From positions 3,312,557 to 3,376,556 of the forward strand of contig OZ255847.1 of assembly GCA_965277855.1 (NCBI GenBank): DNA of 64,000 nt, given 5' to 3'. This document shows positions 16,659-32,374 of this stretch, in pieces (the first letter of the stretch is position 1; the number at the start of each line of letters is the position of its first letter). The notes under the pieces were generated by a model. That model searched no databases, had not been told where the DNA came from, and saw only the letters and a program-made list of their open reading frames with translations. This stretch comes from Bryobacteraceae bacterium. GTDB lineage: Bacteria > Acidobacteriota > Terriglobia > Bryobacterales > Bryobacteraceae. The translations under genes and the position numbers were made by a program.

Positions 16659-17336
16659 ATGAGTCGGACACATGAGGTAAACACGGCCGAAGTCGTCCGT
16701 GAGTACGGTCCCTTTCCGGGTGCCGACAGCGTGCATGGAGTAACGTTTGACGGTCAGAACGTCTGGTTTGCTGCCGGAGATAAGCTAAACGCCTTCGATC
16801 CATCGAGCGGTCAGATGCTTTCTTCGATTGATGCCGTCGCGCATGCGGGAACCGCCTTCGACGGCCGGCATCTATTTCAGCTCGCCGAGGATCGCATCCA
16901 GAAGATCGATCCGAAGAATGGCCGTGTGCTCGCCACGATTCCGGCACCCGGCCAAGGCGGTGACTCGGGGCTCGCGTGGGCCGAAGGGACGCTGTGGGTC
17001 GGGCAGTATCGAGATCGAAAGATCCATCAAGTCGATCCCGAAACAGGGGCGATTCTTCGCACGATCGAGTCCAACCGCTTCGTCACCGGGGTCACCTGGG
17101 TCGATGGAGAGCTGTGGCACGGAACCTTGGAAGCTGATGAGAGCGATTTACGGCGAGTCGATCCTGGAACCGGAGAAGTTCTTGAGAGTCTCGAGATGCC
17201 GCGCGGAGTCACTGTTTCGGGGCTCGAATCCAATGGCGGCGATCGGTTCTTCTGCGGAGGAGGACGGAGCGGTAAGGTCAGGGCGGTCCGGCGGCCTCGA
17301 CGAGGCGTCGCGAAGGGTCACACAGAACGAACTTGA
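16659..17336 (+). CDS. beta-propeller repeat protein (glutamine cyclotransferase-like)
   Basis: 225 aa. The repeated pattern (VHGVTFDGQNVWF, GLAWAEGTLWV, VTGVTWVDGELWH) resembles glutaminyl cyclase-like propellers. No signal peptide is present. Its 3' end overlaps the rtcA 3' end by 19 nt (convergent). Confidence 0.5.
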   Translation: MSRTHEVNTAEVVREYGPFPGADSVHGVTFDGQNVWFAAGDKLNAFDPSSGQMLSSIDAVAHAGTAFDGRHLFQLAEDRIQKIDPKNGRVLATIPAPGQGGDSGLAWAEGTLWVGQYRDRKIHQVDPETGAILRTIESNRFVTGVTWVDGELWHGTLEADESDLRRVDPGTGEVLESLEMPRGVTVSGLESNGGDRFFCGGGRSGKVRAVRRPRRGVAKGHTERT

Positions 17337-18334
17337 ACCTCGACGTGGCTGTCACGATTCACGGTTTCAAAAGACACCGGGAGAAACAGTTGAATCACCT
17401 CCATATTCGTGAGGGCATGCCGGGTCAGCTTGAGCGCCGCGAAGCTGCCTTCGCCTGCTAGTGCGTAGGGCAAGAGGAGTTGGTCAGTCAGGTGTTCCCC
17501 GGCAACTGCATCTGAAACAAGATATTCGCGTGCTTCCCGGACCACGTCTTTGGCGACATTCTCGGCCGTGATGCCGATCTCTCCGAAAGATGTGAATGTC
17601 TCGGTGGCTGCGTCGCTCTCAATCTCCAGCATCACGACATTGCCGGGACCGGGCGATAGCTTCGTATTTACAATCCTGGTTTCGATGCCGCCGGAAAACA
17701 TCTCCTCGACCGTGTCGATCTCTCGTTTTGCTATCTGGGCCTGCAGATTCGCCACGATGGCGGTTACTCGCTTCTGAACCACTGGGCCGCGGACGCCAAC
17801 GTGCAAGACGGAGAGCTTCCGGCATGGCTCGATTACAGCGCGAAAACAGCCGCCGCCCGCAGGATAGAAGCCGTAACGTTCCAACGACAGGTTGACTTGC
17901 GAACCCATGCGCCGGATAAACGGCAGAAAGGTCCGATCTAAGAAGTCGAACGGCGGCGCTGACTGATTGTGCGTTCCGCCTTGGATAGTCAAAGTACTGG
18001 GAGCATCGGCCAGCATCAGCGCCGGTAGTACCGTCTGGAAAACCAATGTGCCGCTGCCCGCCGTGCCAATCACAAAGCGATACTCACCGGGCTTCACTGC
18101 TTTGGGCGTGAAGCACAGGGACTGAGAACCGAGATGCGCTCCTGCGATCTCCGCCTCTCCGATTTGCCCCGCCGCCAGAACACTGGTCAGATGTTGACGT
18201 AAGAGTCCGGGCTTCTTGCGGCCGGCCCGGATGTTTTCCATCTGAAATGGCTGGCCTGTCAGCAGTGACAGCGAGAGCGATGTGCGCAGCAGCTGGCCGC
18301 CGCCCTCGCCTCGCGCGCCGTCAATTTGGATCAT
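17318..18334 (-). CDS. rtcA: RNA 3'-terminal phosphate cyclase
   Basis: From the ATG at 18334: MIQIDGARGEGGGQLLRTSLSLSLLTGQPFQMENIRAGRKKPGLLRQHLT... It appears colinear, from recalled sequence, with E. coli RtcA, including the FYPAGGG region. The ORF-track start at 18487 adds 51 residues antisense to the rtcR remnant. Confidence 0.9.
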   Translation of the reverse strand: MIQIDGARGEGGGQLLRTSLSLSLLTGQPFQMENIRAGRKKPGLLRQHLTSVLAAGQIGEAEIAGAHLGSQSLCFTPKAVKPGEYRFVIGTAGSGTLVFQTVLPALMLADAPSTLTIQGGTHNQSAPPFDFLDRTFLPFIRRMGSQVNLSLERYGFYPAGGGCFRAVIEPCRKLSVLHVGVRGPVVQKRVTAIVANLQAQIAKREIDTVEEMFSGGIETRIVNTKLSPGPGNVVMLEIESDAATETFTSFGEIGITAENVAKDVVREAREYLVSDAVAGEHLTDQLLLPYALAGEGSFAALKLTRHALTNMEVIQLFLPVSFETVNRDSHVEVQVRSV

Positions 18335-18384
18335 AGTCAGCCTTTTACACAAACCACCTGACGCAACGTGTGGACAATTTCCAC

Positions 18385-19408
18385 CAGGTCCGATTGCGCC
18401 GCCATCACGGCATCGAATCGCCACACGCGATCCATTGCTCTTGATGGGTCCGACCGGTGCAGGAAAGTCGAGATTAGCGCGGCGCATCTTCGAACTGAAG
18501 AAAGCTCGTCACGCCGTTAAGGGCGAGTTCGTCGATGTGAACTGCGCCACCTTGCGCGGCGACGGCGCTATGTCGACGCTCTTGGACATGTCAAAGGTGC
18601 ATTTACCGGCGCGCTAAAGGAGCGGCCGGGTCTTCTGCGCACCGCCAATAAAGGAGTTCTCTTCCTGGATGAAATAGGTGAGATGGGATTAGACGAGCAG
18701 GCCATGCTGCTGCGCGCTTTGGAAGAGAAGACATTCTTGCCGCTTGGCTCCGACCGCGAAAGCAACAGCGACTTTCAGTTGATCGCAGGAACCAATCGCG
18801 ATCTGTACCAGGCGGTGCACGAACGCCGCTTCCGCGAAGATCTATTGGCACGCATCAATCTCTGGACCTTTCGCTTGCCCGGCTTGAAAGAGAGGCCGGA
18901 AGACATCGAACCCAACCTTCAGTTCGAACTGGAACAGGTCGCACAGAGAACAGGCCGTCGCGTCACTTTCAGCAAAGAAGCACGCAAGGCTTTTCTCTCG
19001 TTTGCCTTATCGCCCGCGGCTGACTGGAAAGCAAACTTTCGCGATCTGAATGCCGCAGTGGCTCGCATGGCAACGCTCGCGCAAGGCGGACGGATTTCGG
19101 TGCAACTGGTGAATGAGGAGGTCGCGCGTTTGCTGGCGACCTGGCGCGGTCCTGTGGCGCCCGAACAGTCTCAGCAGCTGGCGCTTGTCCTGTCTCCGAA
19201 GCGAATCGAGGAGCTCGATCCTTTCGAGAAAGTTCAGCTCGAACACGTGCTGGCAGTTTGCCGCCGCTCCCGGTCACTATCAGAAGCCGGACGCGCGCTC
19301 TTTCAGGCCTCCAGAGCGAAGAAGACATCCAACAACGATGCAGATCGCCTGCGCAAGTATCTGGCTCGCTATGCGCTGGAATGGTCAGCCCTCGCGGAAC
19401 GGGTTTAA
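18385..19408 (+). pseudogene. rtcR: sigma54-dependent regulator RtcR, 5'-truncated (no CARF domain) and frameshifted
   Basis: Frame A gives ...RIATRDPLLLMGPTGAGKSRLARRIFELKKARHAVKGEFVDVNCATLRGDGAMSTL. The expected continuation (F)GHVKGAFTGALKERPGLLRTANKGVLFLDEIGEMGLDEQAMLLRALEEKTF... is in another frame. This is consistent with one missing T at about 18582-18584. Only about 60 nt separate the rtcA start codon from the first RtcR-like residues, so the roughly 180-aa N-terminal sensor domain cannot be encoded. Confidence 0.8.
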
Positions 19409-19417
19409 GAATTTATT

Positions 19418-20446
19418 TTATGGGCTATAGAGGCCTCCAGCTGCATTCAATATTTCCTTCATTTCCTTTCGCAGTTCACTCGGCGAGACGACCTCGACCG
19501 CATCGCCCCATCCGAGAATCCAGCGACGAATTTCGAAAGGTCCGCCCGCCCGGAACGCGAGTTGGACAGCGCCCTCCGGCAGATCTGTGAGTTCCTGACT
19601 CGGATGCCACAGGCGCTCGTGCACATAGGGCGCTTGATCCGCCCGGAAGCGGAGAACGACGCTCATAGGCTCTTGCCAGGAAACGCCGAACGCATCCTCG
19701 CGACACTTCTGCGGACTGAATCCGGGATCTATCTCGAATTCCGTGTCCAGGAGGCTCACTGACGATAGCCGGTCAACCGAAAGTGTGGCAGTGGCCGTGT
19801 GCTTTGGCACCTGTCCGACCACATACAAGCCTCCGCCTACGAACAAAAGACGGTACGGATCGAACTCATAAGTCTTTGGTTCCGGTCGCGATGGCTTCCG
19901 GTAAGTGACGCGGCACCTTCGCTTGCGGAGAATCGCCTCAATCAAGAGCGCGATTTGGGGTTCGTGAGGGCGAAAATCTTTCGCGCCACAGGTCCACGTG
20001 TCGAACTTTTCGGCCACGCTGGGCGGCACTGCGCCGGGTGACGATTCCACCAGAGCTTGCAGCTTGAACACGGCTGCCGCTAGTGAGTCACTGGCCGGCA
20101 GCGCCGCCTGCGCTTGCCCGGCAGCAAACAGCAACGCGTCCAGTTCCTGCGGCGAAAAACGAATATCGGGTATCTGCGATGAGAGCAGCCGCGGTCGGGA
20201 TAGACGGCCCTGTTCGTCGCCCGCAATGGGATAACCGGCGTCTTCAAGAGCGCGCAAGTCACGACAAATGGTTTCCCGGCGGGTTCCGAACTGAGCCGAA
20301 AGTTCACGAATGGTTGGGGCTTGCTCTTGCACCAACATTCGAAGCAGTGCCAAGATGCGTACGATCTGCCGTTCGCGGCGAGCTTTGGACGAGCGCGGAC
20401 GCGTTTCGCTGCTTCGCCGTTCCTCCCGTGACTGCCGTGTACGCAT
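19418..20446 (-). CDS. HTH-WYL domain transcriptional regulator
   Basis: 342 aa. N-terminal HTH (ILALLRMLVQEQAPTIRELSAQFGTRRETICRDLRALEDAGYPI). WYL-type core (CRVTYRKPSRPEPKTYEFDPYRLLFVGGGLYVVG). C-terminal WCX-like extension. Confidence 0.8.
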   Translation of the reverse strand: MRTRQSREERRSSETRPRSSKARRERQIVRILALLRMLVQEQAPTIRELSAQFGTRRETICRDLRALEDAGYPIAGDEQGRLSRPRLLSSQIPDIRFSPQELDALLFAAGQAQAALPASDSLAAAVFKLQALVESSPGAVPPSVAEKFDTWTCGAKDFRPHEPQIALLIEAILRKRRCRVTYRKPSRPEPKTYEFDPYRLLFVGGGLYVVGQVPKHTATATLSVDRLSSVSLLDTEFEIDPGFSPQKCREDAFGVSWQEPMSVVLRFRADQAPYVHERLWHPSQELTDLPEGAVQLAFRAGGPFEIRRWILGWGDAVEVVSPSELRKEMKEILNAAGGLYSP

Positions 20447-20620
20447 CTATCCTGCATATCGGGCGCTGTGGCAATTTTCTTTAAAGCTCCAGTACCAGGA
20501 CGTTCTCGAAAACTTTCTCTGAGTGAACAACTGTGACGCTGGATCGCACAGAGGGAAACTAGCCTGAAAGGAACTTATGCCACACCTTTCTCAACAGACC
20601 GCTGCATTCCTGTCCCGGGG

Positions 20621-22177
20621 ATGAGCAAACGACGAATGTGGAATGGAACGCCCGGCATTGACAGCCTTTTGCGCAAACTCAAGAGCAATCCGGAAAATCG
20701 CAAGCCGAAGGAGGCGGCCGGATTCGTCATATCCGAAACCCCGGATCTGTTTGCCAACAACGATAACCTGCGTGAAATTACCCGCGTGCGCGATGCTGTC
20801 CGCGATCTTCGTCGAGACGCGAAGGCCATTGATGTAGAAGACGAGTCGCTTACTCGGGCCTGTGAAGCGGATTTCCGCCGCTGCTGCCTTTTGATCTGCG
20901 GACGGATTATCGGCGGACAGAAGCGCGAACTCACCGAGAGAGACCGCTCCTGTTTGGAGCAGGTTCTAGGATTCCCGGTCGATTCGACTGAACTCGCAAC
21001 GGTCAGCGCCGAACTGCGCTCTCGCCCAGTTGCCGAACTCGATGGCCTGTTCCCCATGCTGCTGCGGCGCAAGCTCGACGTCGATACAAAATATCTTGAC
21101 CCGTGCGATTCGCTCATCCGCAAAATCGAGACCATCGCCGAATCGACCGGGAAAATCTACGGAGACAAGCTCGGCAAGCGTGCCAACCTCGCGACACGTG
21201 TCGGCTTACAACTCCGCTGGCTGGTTGATACCGCCAGAGAGCGCCAGGCAGACTCCCCGCCAGACTCTCCGGAGAAAAGCGCGAACGGATTAACCGAGCC
21301 GGTCAATCCAGAAACTCTCGACGACATCAAGGCGGAGCTGATGGGCCTGATCGGCCTGGAACCCGTCAAAAAAGATTTTCTGTCGATCTCGAATCTGCTT
21401 CGAATTCGTCAGCTCCGAAAACAAAACGAGCTGAATACCGATCCTTTATCGCTCCACCTGGTTTTTACCGGTAATCCCGGAACCGGTAAAACGACGGTCG
21501 CCCGGCTTCTGGCGCGTGCGTATCGGGCCTTGGGCGTTCTCTCGAAAGGGCATCTGGTCGAGGTCGATCGCTCCGGACTTGTCGCCGGCTACGTGGGACA
21601 TACCGCGCTCAAGACGAAGGAGGTCGTGAAGCGAGCGTTGGACGGAGTGCTTTTCATAGACGAAGCCTATGCGCTCCTGGGCGAAGGTAAAGACTTTGGA
21701 CCGGAGGCCATCAACACACTCCTTAAGCTGATGGAAGACTATCGTGAACGCCTGATTGTCATCGTAGCGGGCTACACGGAGCCCATGAAGGCGTTTCTTG
21801 AAAGCAATCCCGGACTCAAGTCGCGCTTTAATAAGTTCATTCACTTTGGCGATTACTCCACAGCGGAGATGGCTCAGATCTTCGCATACATGCTCGGCAA
21901 CGCACAGTACCGGGTCACCGATGAGGCGCGCTCGGTGATCGACCCGGCGATGTCGGGACTGCGCCTGGCCGGGAAAGAGCATTTTGGAAATGCACGGGTG
22001 GTTCGGAATCTTGTGGAGCACGTACAGCAGGAGCACGCCAATAGGCTTTCGCCGGTTGCAGAACCAACCACGGCAGATCTGCTTATCATTGAGCGCGCCG
22101 ATATCGAAGCCGCGGCGGCCGCGATGCACTCCCGAAGTGCAAGCGACGAACCTGACGGGGGTTCGAATGGCGAATAG
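20621..22177 (+). CDS. AAA+ ATPase of the CbbX/SpoVK/EccA type with an unassigned ~270-aa N-terminal region
   Basis: 518 aa. Walker A FTGNPGTGKTTVARLLA, Walker B VLFIDEAYAL, and VAGYTEPMKAFLESNPGLKSRF typical of the CbbX/SpoVK clade. The N-terminal half matches nothing I can name. Confidence 0.85.
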   Translation: MSKRRMWNGTPGIDSLLRKLKSNPENRKPKEAAGFVISETPDLFANNDNLREITRVRDAVRDLRRDAKAIDVEDESLTRACEADFRRCCLLICGRIIGGQKRELTERDRSCLEQVLGFPVDSTELATVSAELRSRPVAELDGLFPMLLRRKLDVDTKYLDPCDSLIRKIETIAESTGKIYGDKLGKRANLATRVGLQLRWLVDTARERQADSPPDSPEKSANGLTEPVNPETLDDIKAELMGLIGLEPVKKDFLSISNLLRIRQLRKQNELNTDPLSLHLVFTGNPGTGKTTVARLLARAYRALGVLSKGHLVEVDRSGLVAGYVGHTALKTKEVVKRALDGVLFIDEAYALLGEGKDFGPEAINTLLKLMEDYRERLIVIVAGYTEPMKAFLESNPGLKSRFNKFIHFGDYSTAEMAQIFAYMLGNAQYRVTDEARSVIDPAMSGLRLAGKEHFGNARVVRNLVEHVQQEHANRLSPVAEPTTADLLIIERADIEAAAAAMHSRSASDEPDGGSNGE

Positions 22178-22472
22178 AAAACAGTTTCGCTACGTGGCCC
22201 GTTATGTCCTCCTTTGCTGGATCGGCTTAGCCGGCGTCTATGGCCTCGTGATGGGCATCTACTATCTCTGCCGGAAAGATATCTCGCTCACGATCATGGT
22301 GTCCCAGGCGATTCTATACAGCGCCATGTTTACCGTACTTGGACTCCAACAATACAAACTCCGGCGCGGCCGGAATCAGTTGCACCGCCGCAAAGAAGGC
22401 TGGGGGCTTTCGAAAAGAGAGATGGATGGCGACCTCGACGAATCGGAGGAGATCGATAACGGATGGAACTAA
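22167..22472 (+). CDS. small two-TM membrane protein, translationally coupled to the AAA+ ATPase
   Basis: The ATG at 22167 overlaps the ATPase stop (22175-22177) by 11 nt. 101 aa with two hydrophobic helices (YVLLCWIGLAGVYGLVMGIYYL; LTIMVSQAILYSAMFTVLGL) and a charged C-terminal tail. The ORF-track entry 21984..22472 contains it. Confidence 0.55.
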   Translation: MANRKQFRYVARYVLLCWIGLAGVYGLVMGIYYLCRKDISLTIMVSQAILYSAMFTVLGLQQYKLRRGRNQLHRRKEGWGLSKREMDGDLDESEEIDNGWN

Positions 22473-22529
22473 CGGATCCTGCATTCCAACGAGTGACGAT
22501 CGCGTCTCTCATAAAAACTGTCGTGATGA

Positions 22530-23304
22530 TTAGCTGGGTACTGAGCCGTCCCGAACGGATTGGAGCCGCACCCGAACAAGAAAGTCATTCAGCGGACCGC
22601 GCGAAGTAGGTTCCTCCGGCAGAGTAGACTCGGAGGCCGCCTCTTCGAGCTTCCCGATCAAGCGCCTGTATTCAGCTTCATAAAAACTCCGCGCCTTCGC
22701 ATCAAGCAAGCCGTTTTCTAATCCCAGCATTTTTTTCTCCACCAATTCCGGGAGGTAAGGTAAGCGAAACTCTTCGTTCAGCGTGACGAGGTTGGCCTCT
22801 ATCTTCCCGGTGCGCATGAGGTGTATGCCAGTCAGAATCACACGATAAACATAAAGAAGCGACTTGATGCGCGGCGGGTTTTCCTTTTGAAATAAGTCCC
22901 ACTGCGTCGCAGCGAAACCAAGATAATGATGGCTGTGATGACGGGTGATGCAACCGGTCGCGATCTCTTTTAGCTCGAGGTGTTCTGGTGTGCTGTGTAC
23001 GATCAGCGGCGAGTAAAGCTGCTCCAGAACGTAGCCATTCCTTTTCAGCAGCATCGTGAAGAACTTGAGAATCTCGTGTCACCAGGTCCATTTCGATTCC
23101 GCCACGCACACCCGACACCTCAATCGTGTCCTGCTTTGGCAGCAGGCCAACGGATTCCTTCGCGGGTAGAAGGTGAACGCCGCGCAGGTCATAGTCCGAA
23201 TCTGGGAACGGAAACCCGTACAAATGCGCGCCGCTGATGGTAGCAAACAGCAAAGGGTAAGGATGGCTGGAAGCTTCTGCCTGCAGTAGTTCGAAATCAA
23301 TCAC
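22530..23304 (-). pseudogene. Pol-beta-type nucleotidyltransferase (PF10127/RlaP-like), copy 2, interrupted by a 1-nt frameshift
   Basis: The N-terminal part is in ORF 22702..23304 (ATISGAHLYGFPFPDSDYDLRGVHLL...GIEMDLVT). The rest is in ORF 22530..23054 (..EILKFFTMLLKRNGYVLEQLYSPLIV...). The frames join at about 23072-23080 (rc ...gtgacacgagattctc...). The GTG start overlaps the stop of copy 1 (GTGA). Confidence 0.7.
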
Positions 23305-24197
23305 AGCTGGTACTCCGGCGAAGCAGACGCCCGCCGCGCGCGGATCAGGAAATCGTTGGCGCGCTCATAGTCCGGATGGGCCGGTAGTCGGGTTGAGTCG
23401 AGTGCTTCATCAAGTTCGCGATGGAGAGCAAGGCGCCATCGCTCGACTTCTTCCCACGCCACTTCCCCACGGCGAATTGCTAAGAGCCGTTTGCGGTATT
23501 CCTCGACTCGGAGAGGTACGAAGCCGTGCTTCAAAACTGCTACGCCGGAAAGAAGCAGGCGAATCAAATGCATCACGTGCTTCCAACGTATTTGCCCGCT
23601 ACTCCGAAGATCCTGTTCCAGCTTCTTGAATTGCGAAAGTACGTACGCGTTATACGTGCGATGAACGTATTGCGAGAGAAAGATATGCCGCAAATCAATC
23701 AGCTCTTGGGCAATCGGAGTACAGGTTTCCACCAGGGGTGAATAAAGGCACTCCAGGGCGTTCGGATTCGCTTTCAGAGCAAGACGAATGAACTTTTCGA
23801 TTTCCCAATAGGCTTCTTCATTATCCGTTTCCAACTGCTCGGGAACGCTGGCAAGTGACCAGGCAAGTTCGGCCGGGGGCAGGTAGAAACCACGACGGTC
23901 CGTGTCAGAACCTCCTTGAGTCAGCCCGTAGGCGGTCGAACCGACGATGCAGCGATAAATCACAAAGCGATAGAGTCCTGTTGAATCGGCCGCTCCCGGC
24001 ACTTCCGCCTGCACGTGCTTGAAGATACTGAGTTCGGCCCGTCGAAAGCTTTCCTCGGGACCATCCGCAAAGCGAACGCGATAGCGGTGGTCTGGACCGC
24101 TCGGACTATAAGCCACAATGCCGACCCGGCCGCCGAGTCTGGTCAGCACCTTCGTTCCTTCCGGGATGACAAGGTGGGTCTGATTCTCGCGCTGCAA
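23301..24197 (-). CDS. Pol-beta-type nucleotidyltransferase (PF10127/RlaP-like), copy 1, with ~75-aa N-terminal extension
   Basis: 298 aa with a TTG start. NTase signature VGSTAYGLTQGGSDTDRRGFYL, then NALECLYSPLV and a helical C-terminal half. It is a paralogue of copy 2. It starts 34 nt downstream of the jetD stop on the same strand. Confidence 0.7.
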   Translation of the reverse strand: MQRENQTHLVIPEGTKVLTRLGGRVGIVAYSPSGPDHRYRVRFADGPEESFRRAELSIFKHVQAEVPGAADSTGLYRFVIYRCIVGSTAYGLTQGGSDTDRRGFYLPPAELAWSLASVPEQLETDNEEAYWEIEKFIRLALKANPNALECLYSPLVETCTPIAQELIDLRHIFLSQYVHRTYNAYVLSQFKKLEQDLRSSGQIRWKHVMHLIRLLLSGVAVLKHGFVPLRVEEYRKRLLAIRRGEVAWEEVERWRLALHRELDEALDSTRLPAHPDYERANDFLIRARRASASPEYQL

Positions 24198-24231
24198 TTT
24201 CGCCTACCTTTGAGCGAGTTCCAACCTTCGG

Positions 24232-25452
24232 CTACAGTTTACGAGACCCGACTTCCTGGTGCGCGGCCAGCGCCCGCAACGCACTGTTAAACCAGCTGAA
24301 CGAAATCCGTTCCTGTTCGAGCCGAACACTGTCGCCCATCACGTCGTCCTTCAAATCCCTGAACAAGGAATGTTCCGAATGCGTGAGCCGGCTGAGCACG
24401 CCCTCATATGGGCCTTCTTCAGTCACCCAAAGTCCGCGATGCGCGAGCAGGGTCTCGCGATCCATCAGGAACGCTTGCACTTCAGGAAAATTCGCACGCA
24501 GACGATCGAGAATGGCAAACCCGTGCGTATCGATGTCACCCCAGTAATAAAGCGGTTTCTCTTTCAGCCACCCGGCTTCCGCCAGAAGGGGAACACCATA
24601 GCCCAATCCGAAGATCACCAGGCTACCGGGTATCTCAGGAAACGCCAGGCCATTGATTTCGTTCTCGGTAATAAACACTCTTTCAACCGGAATCGACAGC
24701 TGAACAAACTGGTCGACGGGAACACTTAAATCGCTCAAGCCCTGAATCTGCAGCCGATCGTCGAGGATGCGAAACCGGATCAAAGGCGGTTTGGCGATCA
24801 GGCCGTAACGCTCTTCAAAACTCTTCGAGCGCCCGGCCAGCGTGGCCTCCGCAGTCTCTGGAAGCACTCGATCGAGCAGCTCAGACAACAGACCTTTGCG
24901 CGCCTCGATGAACTTGGTATCCACGCCAGGTATTTCGAGTTGGCGAAGATAGAGCGGCGCACCCGAACGATCCGCAAACCAGGTGAGGATGGCTAGAATC
25001 CGGTCCCAGTCGTCGGCATGATTGAGCGCGGTAAATGGACGCCGAGCAAACCAGTCCTCTAACGCCGGGAATCGACTTATGCTTTCCTCGACCAGACGCT
25101 GGAAGCAGTTAGCTTCGGATTGCTTGCCAATCAGGCGAGTGGCATCGTTTTTAGTCGGCAGGATGATTGCGGCCGGTACACGATTGTGCCCCAGAGTGCG
25201 ATGCTTTATTTGCGCCCATTGAATCTCGTACCCGAAATCCCGCGTGGCCTTGCTGCCCTCTTCGAGATTTTTGATCCACTTTCGAACCTCATCAAAGCGG
25301 TCTGAAAGAGCAGCCGCATCCGGTTTTTTGAAGCGCATTTTCAGAGGAAATTCGAGCTGACCGTCGCCACCGGTTCTCAACAGCCGTCCTGATTCCCAAA
25401 ATCGCTCCACCTGCTGCCTGATAGCGGCTGGTGCGGTCCATTCCATGGACAT
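24232..25452 (-). CDS. jetD: Wadjet JetD (Toprim-like nuclease subunit, DUF2220-type C-terminus)
   Basis: About 406 aa counted from the ATG at 25452, which lies 1 nt after the jetC stop. The ORF-track start at 25494 overlaps jetC. The C-terminal VFITENEINGLAFPE...VIFGLGYG...LYYWGDIDTHGFAILDRLR is the Toprim-like acidic motif of JetD/MksG proteins. Confidence 0.85.
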   Translation of the reverse strand: MSMEWTAPAAIRQQVERFWESGRLLRTGGDGQLEFPLKMRFKKPDAAALSDRFDEVRKWIKNLEEGSKATRDFGYEIQWAQIKHRTLGHNRVPAAIILPTKNDATRLIGKQSEANCFQRLVEESISRFPALEDWFARRPFTALNHADDWDRILAILTWFADRSGAPLYLRQLEIPGVDTKFIEARKGLLSELLDRVLPETAEATLAGRSKSFEERYGLIAKPPLIRFRILDDRLQIQGLSDLSVPVDQFVQLSIPVERVFITENEINGLAFPEIPGSLVIFGLGYGVPLLAEAGWLKEKPLYYWGDIDTHGFAILDRLRANFPEVQAFLMDRETLLAHRGLWVTEEGPYEGVLSRLTHSEHSLFRDLKDDVMGDSVRLEQERISFSWFNSALRALAAHQEVGSRKL

Positions 25453-25453
25453 C

Positions 25454-28400
25454 TTAGGCGCTGCGAGCGTCCCGTTCAGCCCGGTATTCTTCAATCGTCA
25501 AATTGCGCAGCATGGATTGCCGGCCCTCGTGATTATGTACGAATCCTACGCTTGCCACAAACGGTTCGATGATATGGATCTTCTGCAGCGGAGTAACAAT
25601 CAGTAACTGCAGATTCAGCCGCTTGAACAAGTCGAGTCCGTAGCGGGCCGATTCATCCGAGCCCCGTCCGAAAGCCTCATCGATCACCACAAACCGGAAA
25701 GAGCGCAAGCGTTCCTTGTTCCACTCGAGCCCAAACTGATAGGCAAGGCTGGCGGCCAGCACGGTATAGGCAAGCTTCTCTTTCTGGCCGCCTGATTTGC
25801 CGCCCGAGTCGGTATAGTGTTCGAACTCGCGGTCGTCTTCCCGCCACCGTTCGGACGCCGAGAAAGTGAACCACTCGCGCACATCAGTCACTTTCTCTTT
25901 CCATCGTTTATCTAACTGCGCGCTGCCTTCACGCCCGCGGAAACGCTCGATGATCGCCTTGACGTTAAGAAATTTCGATTCTGAATATTCCTCGTCGTAA
26001 GATCCGGTCAACGTGCCCTCGGTACAAGCCCGCAGGTCCTGGTGAAAATCCCGAATCTCTACATCGGTATTCGGCTCGGCTTCGAGTGTGATGTAGCGGC
26101 CCGGGTTGTAATCGATCTGTTGCAGGGATTTGTTGATCAGTTCGATACGCCCGCGAATCGCCTCCCGTTCGCGATAGAGCTGCGATTGAAAATTGGCCAC
26201 TTCGCGAATCGTGTTCTCGTTGAGCAACTCTTTAAATCGCGCCTCAAACCGCGGCAGATCGTCCGACGCAAGTTGGTTCAGCATCCCGCGGTATTCTTCC
26301 GCCGCCTGGATACTGGCATCGGCCTCTTGCGTTTCGAGCGGATACCGGGCACGATACGATTCCATCGCCTTCACAATTTGCTCGGAGAGCCGGGCGATCT
26401 TCTTATCTTCCGCGTCGATTCTTGTCTGTATCCACTCCCGCATTTCTCTTTCGCGGTTGTCGCAGGATTCAACGGTTACGCTCTGTTCCCCTAATGCTCC
26501 GCGGGCCATGTCATCGAGCCGTGGAAATTCCTTAGCCGTGACTTCATCCGGCACAGCCGCTAAGATCTCCTGGCACTCCATCGCTTGAGACTGAGCATTT
26601 TCGAGCTTGTGCCCGGCAAGCGTGTTTTGCTGGTGATACTGCTCCAGCCTTCGCTCCGACTCCTCGAGCAATTTTTCCAAGCCCGCCAGCTGGCCCTGCA
26701 GAGTGCGCAAAATATCCGACCCCTGCTCCAACTCCCGGCGCTCCGCCTCTAACCGCTCAATCTCGATCATCGGCGATTTCCAATCCAGATCGCGGAAGCT
26801 TTGAAAAACAGAGAGCCGGTGCAGCACCAGCAGCCGCTCTTGCAACGCCTTGCCCTCCGCCTGCAGAGTTGCAATACGCCCCGAACTTTTCTGCAGGCGC
26901 GTATTAAGCTCTCTGGCCTGCGTTTCCAGAGCAGCGATTTTGGCTTCGTTCGACCACCCCAGCACAAAGCGGGAGCGATCATCGATGCGGTAACGGTCGT
27001 CCTTCTCGTGACGTTCCCCGACGCCCTTGATCTGGCCTGACCGCGTGATGGCCTGACGTTCGCGCCGGAACAGATCCAGCGAATCGCAGCAAACGTAGTT
27101 GAATCGCCGTCTGATCTCCGCGTCCAACCAGTCATAAAAGACCGGGTGCGGCTTGATGCCGATTTTGTGAACTAGCGAGGACGCGTCGATCGCGGGCTGC
27201 ATCTGAAAATGCTCGGCTGTTTGCTGCCCCCGGATGCGGTAATACACCAACCGTCCTCCGAGATGGGTGCGGTCCACAGACTGCGCCAATGCGGCATAAT
27301 GCGCATCCGGAACCAGCAGGGACAAACCGAAATTGTGCAGAACGCGTTCCATCGCACCTTCCCAATCGCGCTCTTCGGGACGAACCTGCAGGAGCTCTCC
27401 GGCGAAAGGCAACGTCTCCTCCGTAAGCCCCGTCGCGCGGCATAGTTGCTCGCGCAGATCGAGCATGTTCCTGGGGAGATTCGAACGGCGTCGGCGTAGC
27501 GACTGAAGTTCGGATCTGAGTTCCTGTTCCTGCTCCTCCAATTGACGCAACTCGACAATCGCTTCCGTCAGCTCGTTCTGTTTTTCGGCCTGGCGGATTT
27601 CCGTTGCCCCCTTCTCCGCGGCGATGTCACGCTGGTTAGCCAAGAAAATCTCTTCATTCACCACGCCGGGAAGGGCCGCCGTGCCTGCGAGCGCGTCGTA
27701 ATCTCCCGCTCGCCTCGCCCGTTGCTCCTTCTCTCTTTGATTCTCGAATATCTCCGCCTTGATCCGTTCCAGCCGGTTCCCGCCATTCTCGGCGATCGCG
27801 GTCTTTACCTCGTCGCGTTCGAGACGGCGTGCTCTCTGCTTCTCGGAAAGCGACTCGATCCGGCCGGCCACGACGCTCAACTCGGCCTCTAACTTGGCCG
27901 TGCGCTCTCGCAGCAGCGCCAGTTTCAGGAAAGCCGACCACGGCCGCAACATGCTCCGGCTGGTGCGCAGCAGCGTGACTTCGCCCGCCAGCTGCTCCAG
28001 CGTTTTGCAGTCGGTCACCAGTGGAGTCAAGCGGTTTATCTGATCCTTGGCCTTGAGCACTGCCTCGTGCGCCCGGTTCAGATCGTCGAAGTGATTGACA
28101 AGAGCCGCAATGCGAGACTCAACCGGGAATGATTCCAGCATGTGTTCCCGTACAAAATCGGTCAGATTTCCCACGGATTTCATGGAAACTGTCTGGTTGA
28201 ATAAATCCAGCGCCTGTTCGTTCTCAATTCCAAAGCGGCGGCGGTACGCCGCCCCAAACGGTGGAAAGGTGTCGAACAATTCCACATCCGGCATTGCGCG
28301 CAGCCGTTTCCTCAGATCCTTTACTTCGGACCCAAAGCCGGCTAAGTGCTCCGCAATCGCTAGCGGACGGTCGGCCACCACATAAAGACGCGCCGGTTGC

Positions 28401-28912
28401 TCCTGCACGTCCTTGATCCAGAAGATCTGCGTCAACGTGACGGTTCGATCGAGATCCTGGTTGTAAAAGCGGCCCAGGATCACCGAATAGCAGCGATGAT
28501 CGCGCAACGCGACAGGCCGGACCGAAACGCTCGATTCGCCTCTCTCCGATTTATAGTGCCCGAATACATAACTCCTGAGATTCCTCTCGCGGTTGTCCGC
28601 TCCGGCCGCTTTGTTGTAGACAATCTTCTGCGGGGGCACTAACAGCGTGGTAATTGCATCGACAAAGGTCGACTTACCCGAACCGATGTCGCCTGTGAGC
28701 AAGGCATTCTCTCCGCCGAAATCGAGCGCCCAAACCTGGTTGTGGAAAGTTCCCCAGTTATAGATCTCAAAACGGTTCAGGCGAAAACCGGACCGCTCGG
28801 CGGATGAGCACAGGTCCAGCATTTCGGATTTGGCAACCGCGTCAAGCTCTTTCAAAGCTCCTCCCTTCCGCCTCGGGTTGTGATCCGGCCTCTGGTTGTG
28901 ATCCCGAAACAT
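25454..28912 (-). CDS. jetC: Wadjet JetC (SMC-like ABC ATPase)
   Basis: About 1120-1152 aa. N-terminal FRLNRFEIYNWGTF...LLTGDIGSGKSTFVDAI (Walker A). Long Glu/Arg/Leu-rich coiled-coil-like middle. C-terminal DSGGKSGGQKEKLAYTVLAASLAY (signature) and FRFVVIDEAFGRGSDE (Walker B). The true start may be the ATG at 28822, 19 nt after the jetB stop, rather than 28912. Confidence 0.9.
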   Translation of the reverse strand: MFRDHNQRPDHNPRRKGGALKELDAVAKSEMLDLCSSAERSGFRLNRFEIYNWGTFHNQVWALDFGGENALLTGDIGSGKSTFVDAITTLLVPPQKIVYNKAAGADNRERNLRSYVFGHYKSERGESSVSVRPVALRDHRCYSVILGRFYNQDLDRTVTLTQIFWIKDVQEQPARLYVVADRPLAIAEHLAGFGSEVKDLRKRLRAMPDVELFDTFPPFGAAYRRRFGIENEQALDLFNQTVSMKSVGNLTDFVREHMLESFPVESRIAALVNHFDDLNRAHEAVLKAKDQINRLTPLVTDCKTLEQLAGEVTLLRTSRSMLRPWSAFLKLALLRERTAKLEAELSVVAGRIESLSEKQRARRLERDEVKTAIAENGGNRLERIKAEIFENQREKEQRARRAGDYDALAGTAALPGVVNEEIFLANQRDIAAEKGATEIRQAEKQNELTEAIVELRQLEEQEQELRSELQSLRRRRSNLPRNMLDLREQLCRATGLTEETLPFAGELLQVRPEERDWEGAMERVLHNFGLSLLVPDAHYAALAQSVDRTHLGGRLVYYRIRGQQTAEHFQMQPAIDASSLVHKIGIKPHPVFYDWLDAEIRRRFNYVCCDSLDLFRRERQAITRSGQIKGVGERHEKDDRYRIDDRSRFVLGWSNEAKIAALETQARELNTRLQKSSGRIATLQAEGKALQERLLVLHRLSVFQSFRDLDWKSPMIEIERLEAERRELEQGSDILRTLQGQLAGLEKLLEESERRLEQYHQQNTLAGHKLENAQSQAMECQEILAAVPDEVTAKEFPRLDDMARGALGEQSVTVESCDNREREMREWIQTRIDAEDKKIARLSEQIVKAMESYRARYPLETQEADASIQAAEEYRGMLNQLASDDLPRFEARFKELLNENTIREVANFQSQLYREREAIRGRIELINKSLQQIDYNPGRYITLEAEPNTDVEIRDFHQDLRACTEGTLTGSYDEEYSESKFLNVKAIIERFRGREGSAQLDKRWKEKVTDVREWFTFSASERWREDDREFEHYTDSGGKSGGQKEKLAYTVLAASLAYQFGLEWNKERLRSFRFVVIDEAFGRGSDESARYGLDLFKRLNLQLLIVTPLQKIHIIEPFVASVGFVHNHEGRQSMLRNLTIEEYRAERDARSA

Positions 28913-29480
28913 AATCGCGATATTCGGAAAGCCGCTGATCGAACTCCTTCAGCCACTGGGCATCGACGAAGGCTTTCAAAATACGGCGCACCTCGAAGCG
29001 ATCGTCCTGTCCGCGCAGTTTCCGTAGAAAGCCCATCTCCAACACTCGATTGATATGGCCGTCGACGCGGTCAAGTAAGCGGGCTTCATTGGCGGTCTCC
29101 GGCAGGAAAACACCGATCATATCGACAATGTTGTCGCGGCTTACAATCAAGCGCGTCTCGCCGCTGATGGCATCGAACTCAGCCAGCCGTTTGCGCAGCA
29201 GCGCGAGCAGCAGGCTTACCGGATAGCTCAGTTGACGGCGCGGCACCAGCCGGGGGATTTCCTGCTCTCCTTCCGCCGCGGTTCGCTGGCGCAGATAGGC
29301 ATATCCTTCCGCCTCATCCAGGATCATCTCCAAACCAAGCAGCGCAACGTACTCGCGCACCCTCGCTTGCAGGTTGAGCAGCGATTGCCACAGGGCGGGA
29401 TTGTCCTCCTGATAGCTCACGCCTTTCATTAACGCGATCAGAATGGGGGAAATATCGTTGTTTGTATCGGAAGAATCCAA
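28842..29480 (-). CDS. jetB: Wadjet JetB (DUF4194-type, MksE-like)
   Basis: 212 aa with a TTG start. ILIALMKGVSYQEDNPALWQSLLNLQARVREYVALLGLEMILDEAEGYAYLRQR matches the conserved N-terminal pattern of DUF4194 proteins. Its position between jetA and jetC also fits. Confidence 0.8.
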   Translation of the reverse strand: MDSSDTNNDISPILIALMKGVSYQEDNPALWQSLLNLQARVREYVALLGLEMILDEAEGYAYLRQRTAAEGEQEIPRLVPRRQLSYPVSLLLALLRKRLAEFDAISGETRLIVSRDNIVDMIGVFLPETANEARLLDRVDGHINRVLEMGFLRKLRGQDDRFEVRRILKAFVDAQWLKEFDQRLSEYRDYVSGSQPEAGSQPEAEGRSFERA

Positions 29481-29492
29481 GCCGTGCCTTAC

Positions 29493-30956
29493 TCAGTTGA
29501 CCGTGGCGAGCCGGCGCGTTTGCCGGCTGAAAATGACTAGCGGCAAAGTAGCTTGCCGCCTATTTCCATTCTCGTCTGTCCAGGACAGTGTCTGCTTATG
29601 GCCGTCGTCGATAATCGCGGCATCCGATTCCGCGGCGATACTGAGATAGGCGACCAATTCAGCCAGCCCGTGTTCGAGCGGCGCATCCTCGACGAGTTCA
29701 GCCAGCGATAATTGGTTCCGCGTTTGGAGCATGCGTCGGATGTGAGCCGTCAATCGGAGCTTGTCCACGTAGATCTGCTCAAACAGAGCGTCAGCGGGCA
29801 GGTCTTGCGATCCTTCCACCACGATATGCTCCGCCAGAGTGGTCCTCAGAGGCGGACGAAACAGCGGGCGATCCATACTGAGGTCAACCGCCGGGGCGGC
29901 TTCATCCAGTTCCATAAACGGCCCGTCCGGCAGCCTTCCGCGCAACGGAATTGCGAGTTGCTCCAATTCCCGAATGAGTTGCAGGATGCGCCGGTTCTCG
30001 ATCCACATTTGATCGTCGAGATAGCGGCGCAGCTGCTCAGACAGGCGTGCAACCGTGCGCTGTGCGACTTCGCCTGCCGCCATCCAGTCATAGTGAATGC
30101 GCAGCAACCGGCGGTCGGGCGCGAGGTCCCGGATCGCGTCCAATGCGAAGACCGCCTGCAGTAATTCAGAGAGCTCCGACTGCCGCGTAGGCGACAACAG
30201 GAAATCCCAAAACGCCCGAAAACTCTTGCCCTGATCGGAGTCCATGATGGTGTCCCGGTCTCCGAAAATCTCCTCCAGCAGCGATCCCTTCCCTGCTTCC
30301 CAAGTCGCGATTCGCTCGCGCACGGCGCGGTCCAGTGTCCGGAAGTTCTGCTCCACCACACGGAAATCGGAGAGCAGTCCCCGAGCCATGTCGGACATTT
30401 GCAGGAACCGATCTTTCACTTGTGTTGCGTCCAGCAGAGAAATTCGGCCTTCGCGAATTTGCCGAATATCCGCGTCGATTTGAGCTTTTCGCTTTTCCAG
30501 TTCGGCAAGCCGCGCGGCGGGGTCCACTTCCGTTCCCTCGGTGATCTCACGCAGCAAAAAGAAAACGGTTTTCAAACGCGATTCCGCCCCCACGAACTGC
30601 TGCTGCTCGAGACTGGCCAGCCAATCGATGGCTTTCTCGGTAGCGGGAGTAATGTCGAAGTGCGGTTCATCGCTATCCGCCGGGTAATACTTGCGGAGCC
30701 AACCATGTTCGTCGGAAGACCAGTCGTCCAGATATTGCGCGGCCGTCTTGGGGAACAGGTTTTCTGCCAACTGCTCGCCCAGATAGAACAGATAGTCTTC
30801 GAGGCGCGACACCAGTTCCGGTCGAGCCAACGTGCGAACGTTCGGTTGAATGAAAGTGCGGTGCAGAAAACTGATGATCAACGGGGCGTGTTCGGCAGCG
30901 AGTAAACGCCAGGTCGGATGCTTTCGTCTCAGGGCTTGGAGGGTGAGATATTCCAT
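29493..30956 (-). CDS. jetA: Wadjet JetA (DUF3375-type, MksF/kleisin-like)
   Basis: 487 aa. HPTWRLLAAEHAPLIISFLHRTFIQPNVRTLARPELVSRLEDYLFYL matches the typical DUF3375 N-terminus. It is the first gene of the four-gene set in the canonical A-B-C-D order. Confidence 0.8.
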   Translation of the reverse strand: MEYLTLQALRRKHPTWRLLAAEHAPLIISFLHRTFIQPNVRTLARPELVSRLEDYLFYLGEQLAENLFPKTAAQYLDDWSSDEHGWLRKYYPADSDEPHFDITPATEKAIDWLASLEQQQFVGAESRLKTVFFLLREITEGTEVDPAARLAELEKRKAQIDADIRQIREGRISLLDATQVKDRFLQMSDMARGLLSDFRVVEQNFRTLDRAVRERIATWEAGKGSLLEEIFGDRDTIMDSDQGKSFRAFWDFLLSPTRQSELSELLQAVFALDAIRDLAPDRRLLRIHYDWMAAGEVAQRTVARLSEQLRRYLDDQMWIENRRILQLIRELEQLAIPLRGRLPDGPFMELDEAAPAVDLSMDRPLFRPPLRTTLAEHIVVEGSQDLPADALFEQIYVDKLRLTAHIRRMLQTRNQLSLAELVEDAPLEHGLAELVAYLSIAAESDAAIIDDGHKQTLSWTDENGNRRQATLPLVIFSRQTRRLATVN

Positions 30957-30962
30957 CGAGCC

Positions 30963-31364
30963 TCAAACGCGATGTATGCGTTCCAGACCGGGCCAACGGT
31001 CGAAGTCGCGATCGAACGTCAAGATAGATCGAATCTCCCGCCGTTCCATTACCGCGATGTGAACCGAGTCACGAGCGGAGAATAGACCGGGATCCTGAAT
31101 AATTTCGCCGGCGCGCTTAACATCGGTTTTTTCGATCGGGAAGACATCATCGACGAGATTAAGTGTAAGATCTAGTGCTGGCCGGATAGCCTCACGACGG
31201 CCAATACTTGTATAACGGTGCAAGATTTCCTGGAGTACCTCGGCGTCCGTAACCAGACGGTGTCCTCCTGCGATCAGTTTTTCGAGCAGAATCTGCGCTT
31301 CGGATTTATGGGGGTGCGGCCCCCCAACCAAGTACATCGGAATATTGGAATCGATGAAAATCAA
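30963..31364 (-). CDS. vapC: PIN-domain toxin VapC (module 1)
   Basis: 133 aa. PIN acidic residues lie in context (MIFIDSN, TDAEVLQEILH, SARDSVHIAVM, TFDRDFD). Its stop is only 6 nt upstream of the jetA start. Confidence 0.85.
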   Translation of the reverse strand: MIFIDSNIPMYLVGGPHPHKSEAQILLEKLIAGGHRLVTDAEVLQEILHRYTSIGRREAIRPALDLTLNLVDDVFPIEKTDVKRAGEIIQDPGLFSARDSVHIAVMERREIRSILTFDRDFDRWPGLERIHRV

Positions 31365-31606
31365 TCCTGATATCCGCGCTCGATCTCGCCCAGCATCTGC
31401 TCCATGTCCGCAGTGGGAAATGAATGCTCCACAGCGCGCCGGATAGATTTCAATTTAACTTCGGGAGCAATGACTGGCTGCCGCGAACGTGCCTCGCGCA
31501 ACGCACGGCGGACCCATTCGCCCACCGCGAGATGTTCACGCTGCGCTAACTGCTGAATATCGAGGAGTTCCTGATCAGGAAGGAGGACCTGGAGTCGCAT
31601 ACTCAT
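31361..31606 (-). CDS. vapB: ribbon-helix-helix antitoxin VapB (module 1)
   Basis: MSMRLQVLLPDQELLDIQQLAQREHLAVGEWVRRALREA is RHH-like. It overlaps vapC by 4 nt. I prefer the ATG at 31606 over the ORF-track TTG at 31657. Confidence 0.7.
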   Translation of the reverse strand: MSMRLQVLLPDQELLDIQQLAQREHLAVGEWVRRALREARSRQPVIAPEVKLKSIRRAVEHSFPTADMEQMLGEIERGYQD

Positions 31607-31617
31607 AGTGTGAGTAT
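31599..31617. promoter_or_regulatory. 7-bp inverted repeat (atactca-tagtg-tgagtat) at the vapB1 start, possible operator
   Basis: Read from the sequence. It lies in the ~100-bp region between the two divergent vapBC modules. A second short inverted repeat, gtgac-N8-gtcac, lies at about 31650-31667. Confidence 0.3.
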
Positions 31618-31703
31618 AACATGGTCGTTGACTGAGTATATTGTCGCACGTGACCAATCGAAGTCACACTAAAAAGTATAGACTACCTATATACTAAGGA
31701 TTC

Positions 31704-31970
31704 GTGACCAAGACAGCGAAACTCTTCATCAACGGCGGCAGCCAAGCCGTTCGACTGCCGGCCGAATTTCGTTTCGATGGCGACGAAGTATTTGTCCGGC
31801 GGGACGAGCGCACCGGCGAAGTAATCCTATCCAGGAAAACCAGTTGGAGCACGTGGGACGAGTATTTCGAGCTTCGGGACCTTGGCAAAGCGGTGCCGGA
31901 AGAGTTTATGGCCGATCGTCCACTGAATGTCCCCTTCGATCGGAACGATCTCTTTAGTGACGAGAAGTGA
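31704..31970 (+). CDS. vapB: AbrB/SpoVT-type antitoxin VapB (module 2)
   Basis: 88 aa. GTG start preceded by AAGGA. TKTAKLFINGGSQAVRLPAEFRFDGDEVFVRRDERTGEVIL is the classic SpoVT/AbrB-like VapB pattern. Confidence 0.8.
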   Translation: MTKTAKLFINGGSQAVRLPAEFRFDGDEVFVRRDERTGEVILSRKTSWSTWDEYFELRDLGKAVPEEFMADRPLNVPFDRNDLFSDEK

Positions 31971-32374
31971 GTGAACTCTTCATGCTCGATACCGATACTG
32001 TGAGCTACGTCATCAAAGGGAGCGCCCCGCAGATCGACGATCATCTTAGAAGCTTAAACGTGACGCAGGTCTGCATCTCGGCCATCACGCGCGCTGAGTT
32101 GCGCTTTGGCGTCGCGAGGCTCCCAAGACTGAATCGCCTAGCGGCCGGGGTCGAGAAATTCTTGAGCGGCGTTCCAACATTACCCTGGGACGAAGTTGCG
32201 GCTGATCAGTGCGCTACGGTACGAGCCGACCTGGAGCGCGGTGGAACCCCAATTGGAATCATGGATACCCTGATCGCCGCCCATGCCAAAGCCCTGAAGG
32301 CGATCCTCGTCACGAATAATGTGAACCACTTTCGTTTAGTCAAAGGACTGTCGATAGAAAACTGGGCAGAGTAG
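31967..32374 (+). CDS. vapC: PIN-domain toxin VapC (module 2)
   Basis: 135 aa with a GTGA overlap with vapB2. PIN residues: MLDTDT, ITRAELRFG, IMDTLIAAHA, VTNNVNHF. Confidence 0.85.
   Translation: MSELFMLDTDTVSYVIKGSAPQIDDHLRSLNVTQVCISAITRAELRFGVARLPRLNRLAAGVEKFLSGVPTLPWDEVAADQCATVRADLERGGTPIGIMDTLIAAHAKALKAILVTNNVNHFRLVKGLSIENWAE

Follow-up and report, generated by a model that had tools for sequence, protein, structure and literature searches.

A predicted toxin-antitoxin-led type I Wadjet cassette and an adjacent, probably unrelated pair of RlaP-type nucleotidyltransferase genes in a Bryobacteraceae genome

Introduction

Does close packing on one strand make neighbouring genes the parts of a single defence system? 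The question is raised by a 64,000-nucleotide stretch of the genome of a Bryobacteraceae bacterium (assembly GCA_965277855.1, contig OZ255847.1, positions 3,312,557 to 3,376,556), hereafter called the window, in which a toxin-antitoxin (TA) gene pair, vapB and vapC, the four genes jetABCD of a Wadjet system and two genes for Pol-beta-type nucleotidyltransferases (NTases) follow one another on the minus strand. It had been proposed from the sequence of the window, in what is here called the original prediction, that Wadjet is transcribed or read through from a VapB-autoregulated promoter, and that the two NTases are co-expressed with it as accessory effector or repair functions, the whole being perhaps a novel extended Wadjet. 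The comparative analysis reported here separates the two proposals, in that we consider it probable that the locus is a composite of a six-gene vapBC-jetABCD cassette, which would be transcribed as one mRNA from the vapB promoter, and an unrelated, decaying pair of NTase genes of the RlaP type at the site of its insertion.

Type I Wadjet, or JetABCD, has been described in Bacillus cereus Q1, Escherichia coli GF4-3 and Pseudomonas aeruginosa, and is related to MksBEFG of Corynebacterium. The complex acts on small circular DNA by SMC-type loop extrusion followed by cleavage by JetD, and the same action is presumed for the system of the window by analogy. To our knowledge the control of Wadjet expression has hardly been studied.

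Results

Gene order, junctions and predicted products of the array

Eight consecutive reading frames, in the order vapB, vapC, jetA, jetB, jetC, jetD, NTase-1 and NTase-2, occupy positions 22530-31606 of the minus strand, and the list of open reading frames (ORFs) together with direct reading of the sequence established that no gap within the array exceeds 34 nt. The frames of vapB (31361-31606) and vapC (30963-31364) have 4 nt in common (TTGA), the vapC stop codon is separated by 6 nt from the jetA ATG at 30956, with a GAGG motif overlapping that stop codon, and 12 nt lie between the stop of jetA (29493) and the TTG start of jetB (29480). When read from the TTG at 28855, jetC overlaps jetB, which stops at 28842, by 14 nt, the alternative starts being the ATG codons at 28912 (71-nt overlap) and 28822 (19-nt gap). 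The jetC stop (25454) is followed after 1 nt by the jetD ATG at 25452, or after 7 nt if the ATG at 25446 is used instead, the jetD stop (24232) precedes the NTase-1 TTG (24197) by 34 nt, and the two NTase frames overlap at GTGA (23301-23304). The junction spacings and minus-strand orientation given in the original prediction are all borne out by the ORF list and the sequence; of its eight genes, seven are intact frames, but NTase-2 does not exist as a single gene, owing to a 2-nt deletion that is described below. A generic scan for promoters and terminators inside the array gave none above shuffled controls, and the first terminator-like hairpin 3' of the array, a consensus match only, is found at 22357-22377 on the minus strand.

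The four jet genes, all on the minus strand, are predicted to specify a complete and ordinary type I Wadjet, as all four products gave near full-length PADLOC matches. The 487-aa JetA (29493-30956), a DUF3375 protein and kleisin-like subunit, matches PF11855 over residues 9-476 (E = 1.7e-149) and PADLOC JetA1 (9.5e-215), while the 212-aa JetB (28842-29480), a DUF4194/MksE-like subunit with a TTG start, matches PF13835 (4.3e-47) and PADLOC JetB1 (5.3e-92). The SMC-like ABC ATPase JetC (25454-28855) matches PADLOC JetC1 over its full length (1578.9 bits) and carries a Walker A motif, GDIGSGKS, at residue 74 and a Walker B motif, FVVIDE, at residue 1074. Its longest ORF begins at 28912, and its start is most likely the TTG at 28855, as this codon follows GGGAGG and agrees with the JetC of 1132 aa annotated in the closely related locus L085 (jetB overlap of 14 nt). 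JetD (24232-25452) combines DUF3322 (PF11795, 6.6e-56) with a JetD_C Toprim nuclease domain (PF09983, 5.4e-58), matches PADLOC JetD1 and possesses the acidic motifs ENE at residue 263 and DID at residue 306.

Upstream of jetA and likewise on the minus strand, vapB1 encodes an 81-aa antitoxin of the ribbon-helix-helix (RHH) type and vapC1 a 133-aa PIN-domain toxin, the latter matching PF01850 (E = 5.2e-17) and retaining the acidic residues D5, E42, D99 and D118/D120. The RHH_1 profile was matched by all six aligned members of the VapB family (best E = 4.4e-5), the window VapB alone giving an E value of 0.1, which is below the Pfam threshold, and a VapB profile searched against the PDB gave a weak match (E = 0.095) to chain 3h87_C, whose sole annotation is 'Putative uncharacterized protein'. 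The pair appears to be an ordinary RHH/PIN type II module, the toxicity of VapC and its neutralisation being predictions from sequence.

Recurrence of the vapBC-jetABCD block in related genomes

The closest JetD homologues are 100% identical in the source genome and 91% identical in L085, which occupies the same chromosomal site, after which identity drops to 72%, the level of the lineages L086 and L090. A metagenome scan with a JetA alignment yielded six loci, of which L091 and L092 were informative and four were distant, and a tblastn search of plasmids with JetA returned relatives only at 52% identity or less, mostly from one Ralstonia megaplasmid lineage. In L086 an intact vapBC pair is present 22 nt upstream of jetA, its VapB and VapC being 78% and 77% identical, respectively, to those of the window, and L091 and L092 also harbour an intact vapBC before jetA, at the same site as L086 minus a 1.6-kb insert carrying an ECF sigma gene. 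Overall, vapBC of L086 and L091/L092, located 22 nt before jetA in both groups, shows 77-81% amino acid identity to that of the window (78-81% for VapB of L086 and L091). Two further relatives have a defunct TA pair and full-length jetABCD: L090 has an in-frame TAG in vapB and only a remnant of vapC, and in L085 vapB is cut to a 67-codon ORF, and of vapC only the last 11 codons remain, together with the Shine-Dalgarno sequence of jetA. The vapC-jetA distance across these loci is 6-22 nt, with the jetA Shine-Dalgarno sequence overlapping or following the vapC stop codon.

The limits of the shared segment are sharp. Comparison of the window lineage with L086 by blastn gave homology from 31638 to 24276; it begins 32 nt ahead of vapB and breaks off 44 nt short of the jetD stop codon, and the flanks outside this block are unrelated between the two. 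Three different upstream flanks were observed, namely a divergent second vapBC in the window lineage, MFS and HpcH genes in the L086 group, and a peptidase S15 gene in L090; downstream of jetD the window lineage has the RlaP pair, and L086 and L090 have a TIR-domain gene in common. The number of nonsynonymous substitutions per site (dN) between the window and L086 is similar for the two parts of the block, at 0.12-0.14 for vapB and vapC and 0.10-0.12 for jetA, jetB and jetC, with a ratio to synonymous substitutions (dN/dS) of approximately 0.05-0.1; purifying selection thus acts on both TA genes in the loci that have them intact. As vapBC recurs before jetABCD under three upstream flanks, in a Bryobacterales clade with JetA identity of at least 81%, the segment of approximately 24232-31640 appears to have been inherited there, or to have moved, as a unit. 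The TIR-domain gene is convergent to jetD in both of the 72%-identity lineages (L086, 11225-12402; L090, 11168-12346), is split into ORFs of 270 and 122 aa in L086, is a single 392-aa ORF in L090, and has no PADLOC match.

A conserved palindrome at the start of vapB

Operator-like repeats were found at the start of vapB1 (31599-31640, minus strand), comprising a perfect 7+7 palindrome, ATACTCA-N5-TGAGTAT, which lies across the vapB ATG (31599-31617), and a second 21-nt unit (31620-31640) located 22 nt upstream. The repeats include TATACT, a -10-like hexamer, 6 nt before the vapB ATG. The palindrome pattern occurs once in the 64 kb of the window, against zero sites expected by chance, and among 113 fetched loci it is present only in six others linked to Wadjet, always at the start of vapB. 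It is thus kept in all seven Wadjet-linked loci, the window included, among them L085 and L090, where the TA pair is defunct; alignment of the seven loci showed that the palindrome region is the sole conserved non-coding element upstream of jetA. We propose that the palindrome represents an RHH-type operator which would be bound by VapB or VapBC.

These observations bear directly on where transcription of the jet genes may begin. Since the body of vapC is deleted in L085 and degraded in L090, with jetABCD intact and under purifying selection, a promoter inside vapC cannot be required for their expression, and the toxin itself appears dispensable, with at least two losses in loci that still have the promoter region and the jet genes. 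The fact that vapC can be deleted without loss of jet, together with the 6-22-nt vapC-jetA gap and the palindrome as the only conserved non-coding element, points to a single transcription unit. The first half of the original prediction, that Wadjet is read from a VapB-controlled promoter, therefore draws support from the recurrence of the block under three flanks, from the palindrome in seven of seven loci and from the loss of vapC in L085 and L090.

The second vapBC module of the window lies divergently on the plus strand (31704-32374) and consists of an AbrB/MazE-type antitoxin gene (31704-31970) and a PIN toxin gene (31967-32374); it borders the Wadjet cassette in the window lineage only. 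The intergenic region common to both vapBC modules contains a 9-nt direct repeat, CGTGACCAA, at 31649-31657 and 31703-31711, which may be the operator of the second vapBC.

The RlaP pair and its distribution

The seventh gene of the array, NTase-1 or RlaP-1 (23301-24197, minus strand), encodes a 298-aa Pol-beta-type RNA nucleotidyltransferase of family PF10127 (121.8 bits), with a conserved TTG start, a family-specific N-terminal extension of approximately 75 aa, a GS...DTD motif and an intact frame. The eighth, NTase-2 or RlaP-2 (22530-23304, 775 nt, minus strand), is a paralogous PF10127 gene that is interrupted, its halves scoring 52.2 and 89.6 bits. The two are approximately 26% identical and their Pol-beta G[SA]...DxD motifs read GSTAYGLTQGGSDTD and GAHLYGFPFPDSDYD. 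RlaP has been reported to add one or two nucleoside monophosphates to RNA 3' ends and has been proposed to aid RNA repair (bioRxiv 10.64898/2025.12.29.696909). No PDB sequence match was found for the pair, and the AlphaFold2 model of RlaP-1 was poor (pLDDT 56.8, from a shallow alignment of 28 sequences), with only its N-terminal beta-rich region, residues 10-58, reaching moderate values (pLDDT 73-84). RlaP-1 and RlaP-2 may act as a heterodimer; we found no published study of the tandem.

Homologues of RlaP-1 number in the thousands; the top 120 clusters, at 75-94% identity, derive from soil Acidobacteriota, including Bryobacterales and Solibacter. When a single genome was scanned for each GTDB species, 80 loci (L005-L084) of 52-88% identity were recovered, which span Acidobacteriota, Cyanobacteria, Chloroflexota, Verrucomicrobiota, Armatimonadota and others. 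The tandem is largely maintained across them, with an NTase-2 orthologue no more than 150 nt downstream of NTase-1 in 63 of the 80, at 151-1000 nt in five and at more than 1 kb in three, while the contig ends before an orthologue in four and the orthologue is absent in five. A second RlaP-1-like copy was observed 3 kb upstream of the pair in L027 (6314-7121).

None of the 80 species-representative loci has a Jet homologue within 10 kb of RlaP (best Jet E = 0.86), nor a VapBC1 homologue within the same distance (best VapC1 E = 1.3). The two nearest complete chromosomes carry the RlaP pair without Wadjet, between MacB and PurE in L001 and 53 nt after a SurA-like gene in L002, and RlaP is found downstream of jetD in none of the seven other Wadjet lineages in which this region is visible (L086, L090, L093, L094, L097, L098 and L100). 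The adjacency of RlaP and Wadjet is confined to a single chromosomal site, which is common to the window, L004 and L085. That close spacing is a poor guide here is illustrated by L100, where 6 nt separate the end of an anti-sigma gene from jetA and a formamidase gene (FmdA) starts 9 nt after jetD; as unrelated genes lie equally tight against Wadjet elsewhere, the 34-nt jetD-NTase-1 spacing, taken alone, misled towards an accessory function. The Wadjet of L100 (3256-12196), with a JetD of 57% identity, is situated between an ECF sigma/anti-sigma pair and the formamidase gene.

RNA-repair neighbourhood and decay of the RlaP pair

The genes that do accompany RlaP are in some cases those of RNA repair: Pnkp/Hen1 occurs within 5 kb of the pair in approximately 10 of the 80 loci and RtcA stands beside it in L009, most loci having no repair gene nearby. 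An ORF resembling Ro60/TROVE-vWA runs into RlaP-1 in L035 (8690-10000). Clustering of neighbours had placed a TROVE/Ro60 family in 23 RlaP loci, which was rejected as an artefact of extended RlaP-1 ORFs, only L035 having a Ro60-like gene.

A degenerate Rtc locus (17318-19408, both strands) is present in the window 4 kb from RlaP-2. It consists of an intact-looking rtcA on the minus strand (17318-18487; NF003246, 3.4e-125) and, on the plus strand, the C-terminal 240 aa only of the sigma-54 activator RtcR (18683-19408; NF038308 positions 290-528 of 530). No rtcB was seen at this locus, and those parts of the window that were examined (approximately 14-34 kb) yielded no RNA ligase gene. L004 and L085 carry a 64-aa RtcA remnant straight after RlaP-2, and the stretch of approximately 5 kb at 17336-22530 is absent from these sister contigs. 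The Rtc locus is the likely original setting of the RlaP pair. A WYL/WCX-domain helix-turn-helix regulator (19418-20446, minus strand) and, on the plus strand, an AAA ATPase of 518 aa (20621-22177) with weak PADLOC matches to TRIP13 and IetA are situated between the Rtc remnant and RlaP-2.

The interruption of RlaP-2 was traced to the loss of 2 nt from an (AC)3 run near 23080, where the window reads CTGGTG--ACACGAG as compared to CTGGTGACACACGA in the relatives L001, L002, L004 and L085, leaving Pfam positions 9-66 in frame A and 84-249 in frame B; intact RlaP-2 orthologues have 258 aa. Programmed frameshifting was considered for RlaP-2 and ruled out by the uninterrupted frame at that site in the four relatives. 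In L085, a circular chromosome sequenced at 121x, RlaP-1 is without residues approximately 125-158 and RlaP-2 is fragmented, and the adjacent jet genes are intact. With the pair disrupted in both good genomes of the window lineage, it appears to be decaying there. Only approximately 30 nt of the conserved RlaP-1 leader is left between the jetD stop and the conserved TTG start, which indicates that the pair has lost its native upstream region and, as a consequence, could be transcribed only if polymerase reads through from jetD or if a cryptic promoter is used. Taken together, these data suggest that the RlaP pair (22530-24197) is an autonomous module of RNA-repair neighbourhoods and not an accessory of Wadjet. 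Rfam and tRNA scans of the window were empty.

Discussion

The arrangement that we judge to be quite probable for this locus is a composite one, in which a stand-alone RHH/PIN VapBC would have become joined to the 5' end of a complete type I Wadjet, and the resulting cassette would abut RlaP-1 approximately 32 nt upstream of its start. A single polycistronic mRNA would run from the vapB promoter through jetD, VapB or VapBC bound at the overlapping palindromic operator would set the level of Wadjet transcription, and the TA pair could in addition act by addiction, making loss of the cassette's 5' end costly. It is possible, although on balance doubtful, that in this clade of soil Acidobacteriota the VapB/VapBC-repressed promoter was co-opted as the control of Wadjet, with expression tied to antitoxin turnover under stress or invasion and the toxin discardable later without loss of the regulatory leader.

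Several observations weigh against the composite arrangement or limit its reach. The independent vapBC-jet contexts are few, being the three upstream flanks, and all belong to one clade with JetA identity of at least 81%; Wadjets at 66% JetA identity or less are without vapBC and have an ECF sigma/anti-sigma pair, Fic or an ABC ATPase upstream, so that the association is clade-specific. The same VapBC subfamily (81-aa RHH plus 133-aa PIN) is abundant on its own at 72-80% identity, as confirmed in L102 and L106, and VapC phylogeny consequently cannot prove co-divergence; a neighbour-joining tree of 123 VapC sequences resolved no Wadjet-linked clade, owing to the long branch on which the window VapC is placed. 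A sigma-70 consensus scan called no promoter at vapB, although promoters of Acidobacteriota may differ from the consensus. In L113 (1797-2300) the upstream flank of L090 (peptidase S15) is followed by an intact vapBC, 92% identical to that of L091, but jet genes are absent; similarity to L086 and L091 ends within approximately 3 nt of the jetA ATG, with the jetA Shine-Dalgarno-like GGAGAA still there. This locus may be a deletion derivative in which the TA pair was retained, as an addiction module predicts, or equally an ancestral empty site, in which case jet could have entered downstream of a vapBC that was already there, the two not always travelling together. A tRNA-3'-end-like sequence, TGGCTCCCCGACATGGATTCGAACCA, occurs approximately 130 nt downstream of the L113 breakpoint, around which ARAGORN found no complete tRNA. 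Finally, the RlaP-2 frameshift could be an assembly error; the deletion lies outside any homopolymer, and in the sister genome the two RlaP genes have both been damaged independently.

Three other explanations were weighed. One takes up the second half of the original prediction and regards all eight genes as a single extended Wadjet system with the NTases as accessory effector or repair subunits, to which the 34-nt spacing, the GTGA overlap of the NTases, the lack of a terminator-like site between jetD and NTase-1 and the identical arrangement in L004 and L085 would all lend themselves. However, L004 and L085 represent the same chromosomal site in near relatives and so contribute no independent evidence, genes unrelated to Wadjet lie just as close to it in L100, neither the 80 RlaP loci nor the seven other Wadjet lineages show the association, and the RlaP pair is damaged, in RlaP-2 by the frameshift of the window and in both genes in L085, where the jet genes are intact. 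This explanation is very unlikely, and the claims that the Pol-beta NTases are Wadjet accessories, and that their inclusion makes a novel eight-gene Wadjet, are contradicted by the comparative data, including the links of RlaP to RNA repair and its disruption in this lineage. Recurrence in other genomes, on which the original prediction would have the matter judged, was found for vapBC, in the close clade only, and was not found for the NTases.

The remaining two explanations concern what vapBC is doing in front of jetA. That it is merely a selfish or hitch-hiking TA pair at the edge of a defence island, with Wadjet transcribed from its own promoter and no coupling between them, would accord with the general enrichment of TA modules in defence islands, the commonness of the subfamily as a stand-alone module, the two losses of vapC without loss of jet, and the more distant Wadjets that are without vapBC. 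We nevertheless consider it improbable, as only 6-22 nt lie between vapC and jetA, the jetA Shine-Dalgarno sequence is positioned over or after the vapC stop codon, L085 is without nearly all of vapC, the site for an internal promoter, yet its jet genes are under purifying selection, and the vapB palindrome region alone is conserved among the non-coding sequences upstream of jetA in the seven loci. Conversely, VapBC might be a working partner of Wadjet, the PIN RNase acting as an abortive-infection back-up upon depletion of the labile VapB in the course of an invasion, or RlaP repairing RNA cut by VapC. The conservation of the block, the purifying selection on intact vapB and vapC and the proposal that RlaP is an antidote to ribotoxins would speak for such a partnership, but L085 and L090 have each independently lost the toxin with Wadjet intact, VapBC of the same subfamily functions alone elsewhere, and RlaP showed no association with this VapBC in 80 loci; a working partnership hence has a very small probability in our view.

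If the composite arrangement is correct, the TA-led Wadjet cassette is a modest new variation on a known system, so far from one Bryobacterales clade only; we found no paper linking Wadjet to VapBC or RlaP, nor any describing a TA-led Wadjet. A TA promoter and operator leading into jetABCD would offer a concrete and testable case of a TA module regulating or stabilising a defence system, and, if true, of its domestication as a regulator of that system, for which the natural series from intact TA through truncated antitoxin to deleted toxin provides ready-made variants. The negative result is of use as well, given that tight spacing alone wrongly implied an accessory role for the RlaP pair, which instead would represent a widespread tandem NTase module of RNA-repair neighbourhoods.

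Compared with known type I Wadjet systems, that of the window has the same jetA-B-C-D order, full-length PADLOC matches, and the Walker A/B and Toprim acidic motifs, and it differs in the co-oriented vapBC 6 nt upstream, which recurs in the Bryobacterales clade. Similarly, its vapBC resembles type II RHH modules in the sizes of the antitoxin (81 aa) and PIN toxin (133 aa), the 4-nt overlap, the operator-like palindrome at its start and the abundance of close stand-alone homologues, but here the bicistron runs unbroken into four large defence genes, and in two relatives of the window the toxin has decayed with the leader kept. The position of vapBC at the edge of a horizontally moving block recalls the addiction modules of islands, integrons and plasmids, and the state of L113, with vapBC kept and jet absent at the L090 site, is what a module acting against deletion would favour; unlike those modules, vapBC of the window would lie in the same operon as its cargo and not form a separate unit, and stabilisation is here suggested by analogy. 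With the RlaP of the Pseudomonas rtcB-rlaP-rtcA operon (bioRxiv 10.64898/2025.12.29.696909) the pair of the window shares PF10127 and the G[SA]...DxD motif, with RNA-repair genes nearby in the window and in approximately 10 of 80 relatives, whereas it is distinguished by being a tandem of paralogues that is usually found outside an rtcB operon, by the additional N-terminal domain of approximately 75 aa in RlaP-1 and by the frameshift in RlaP-2.

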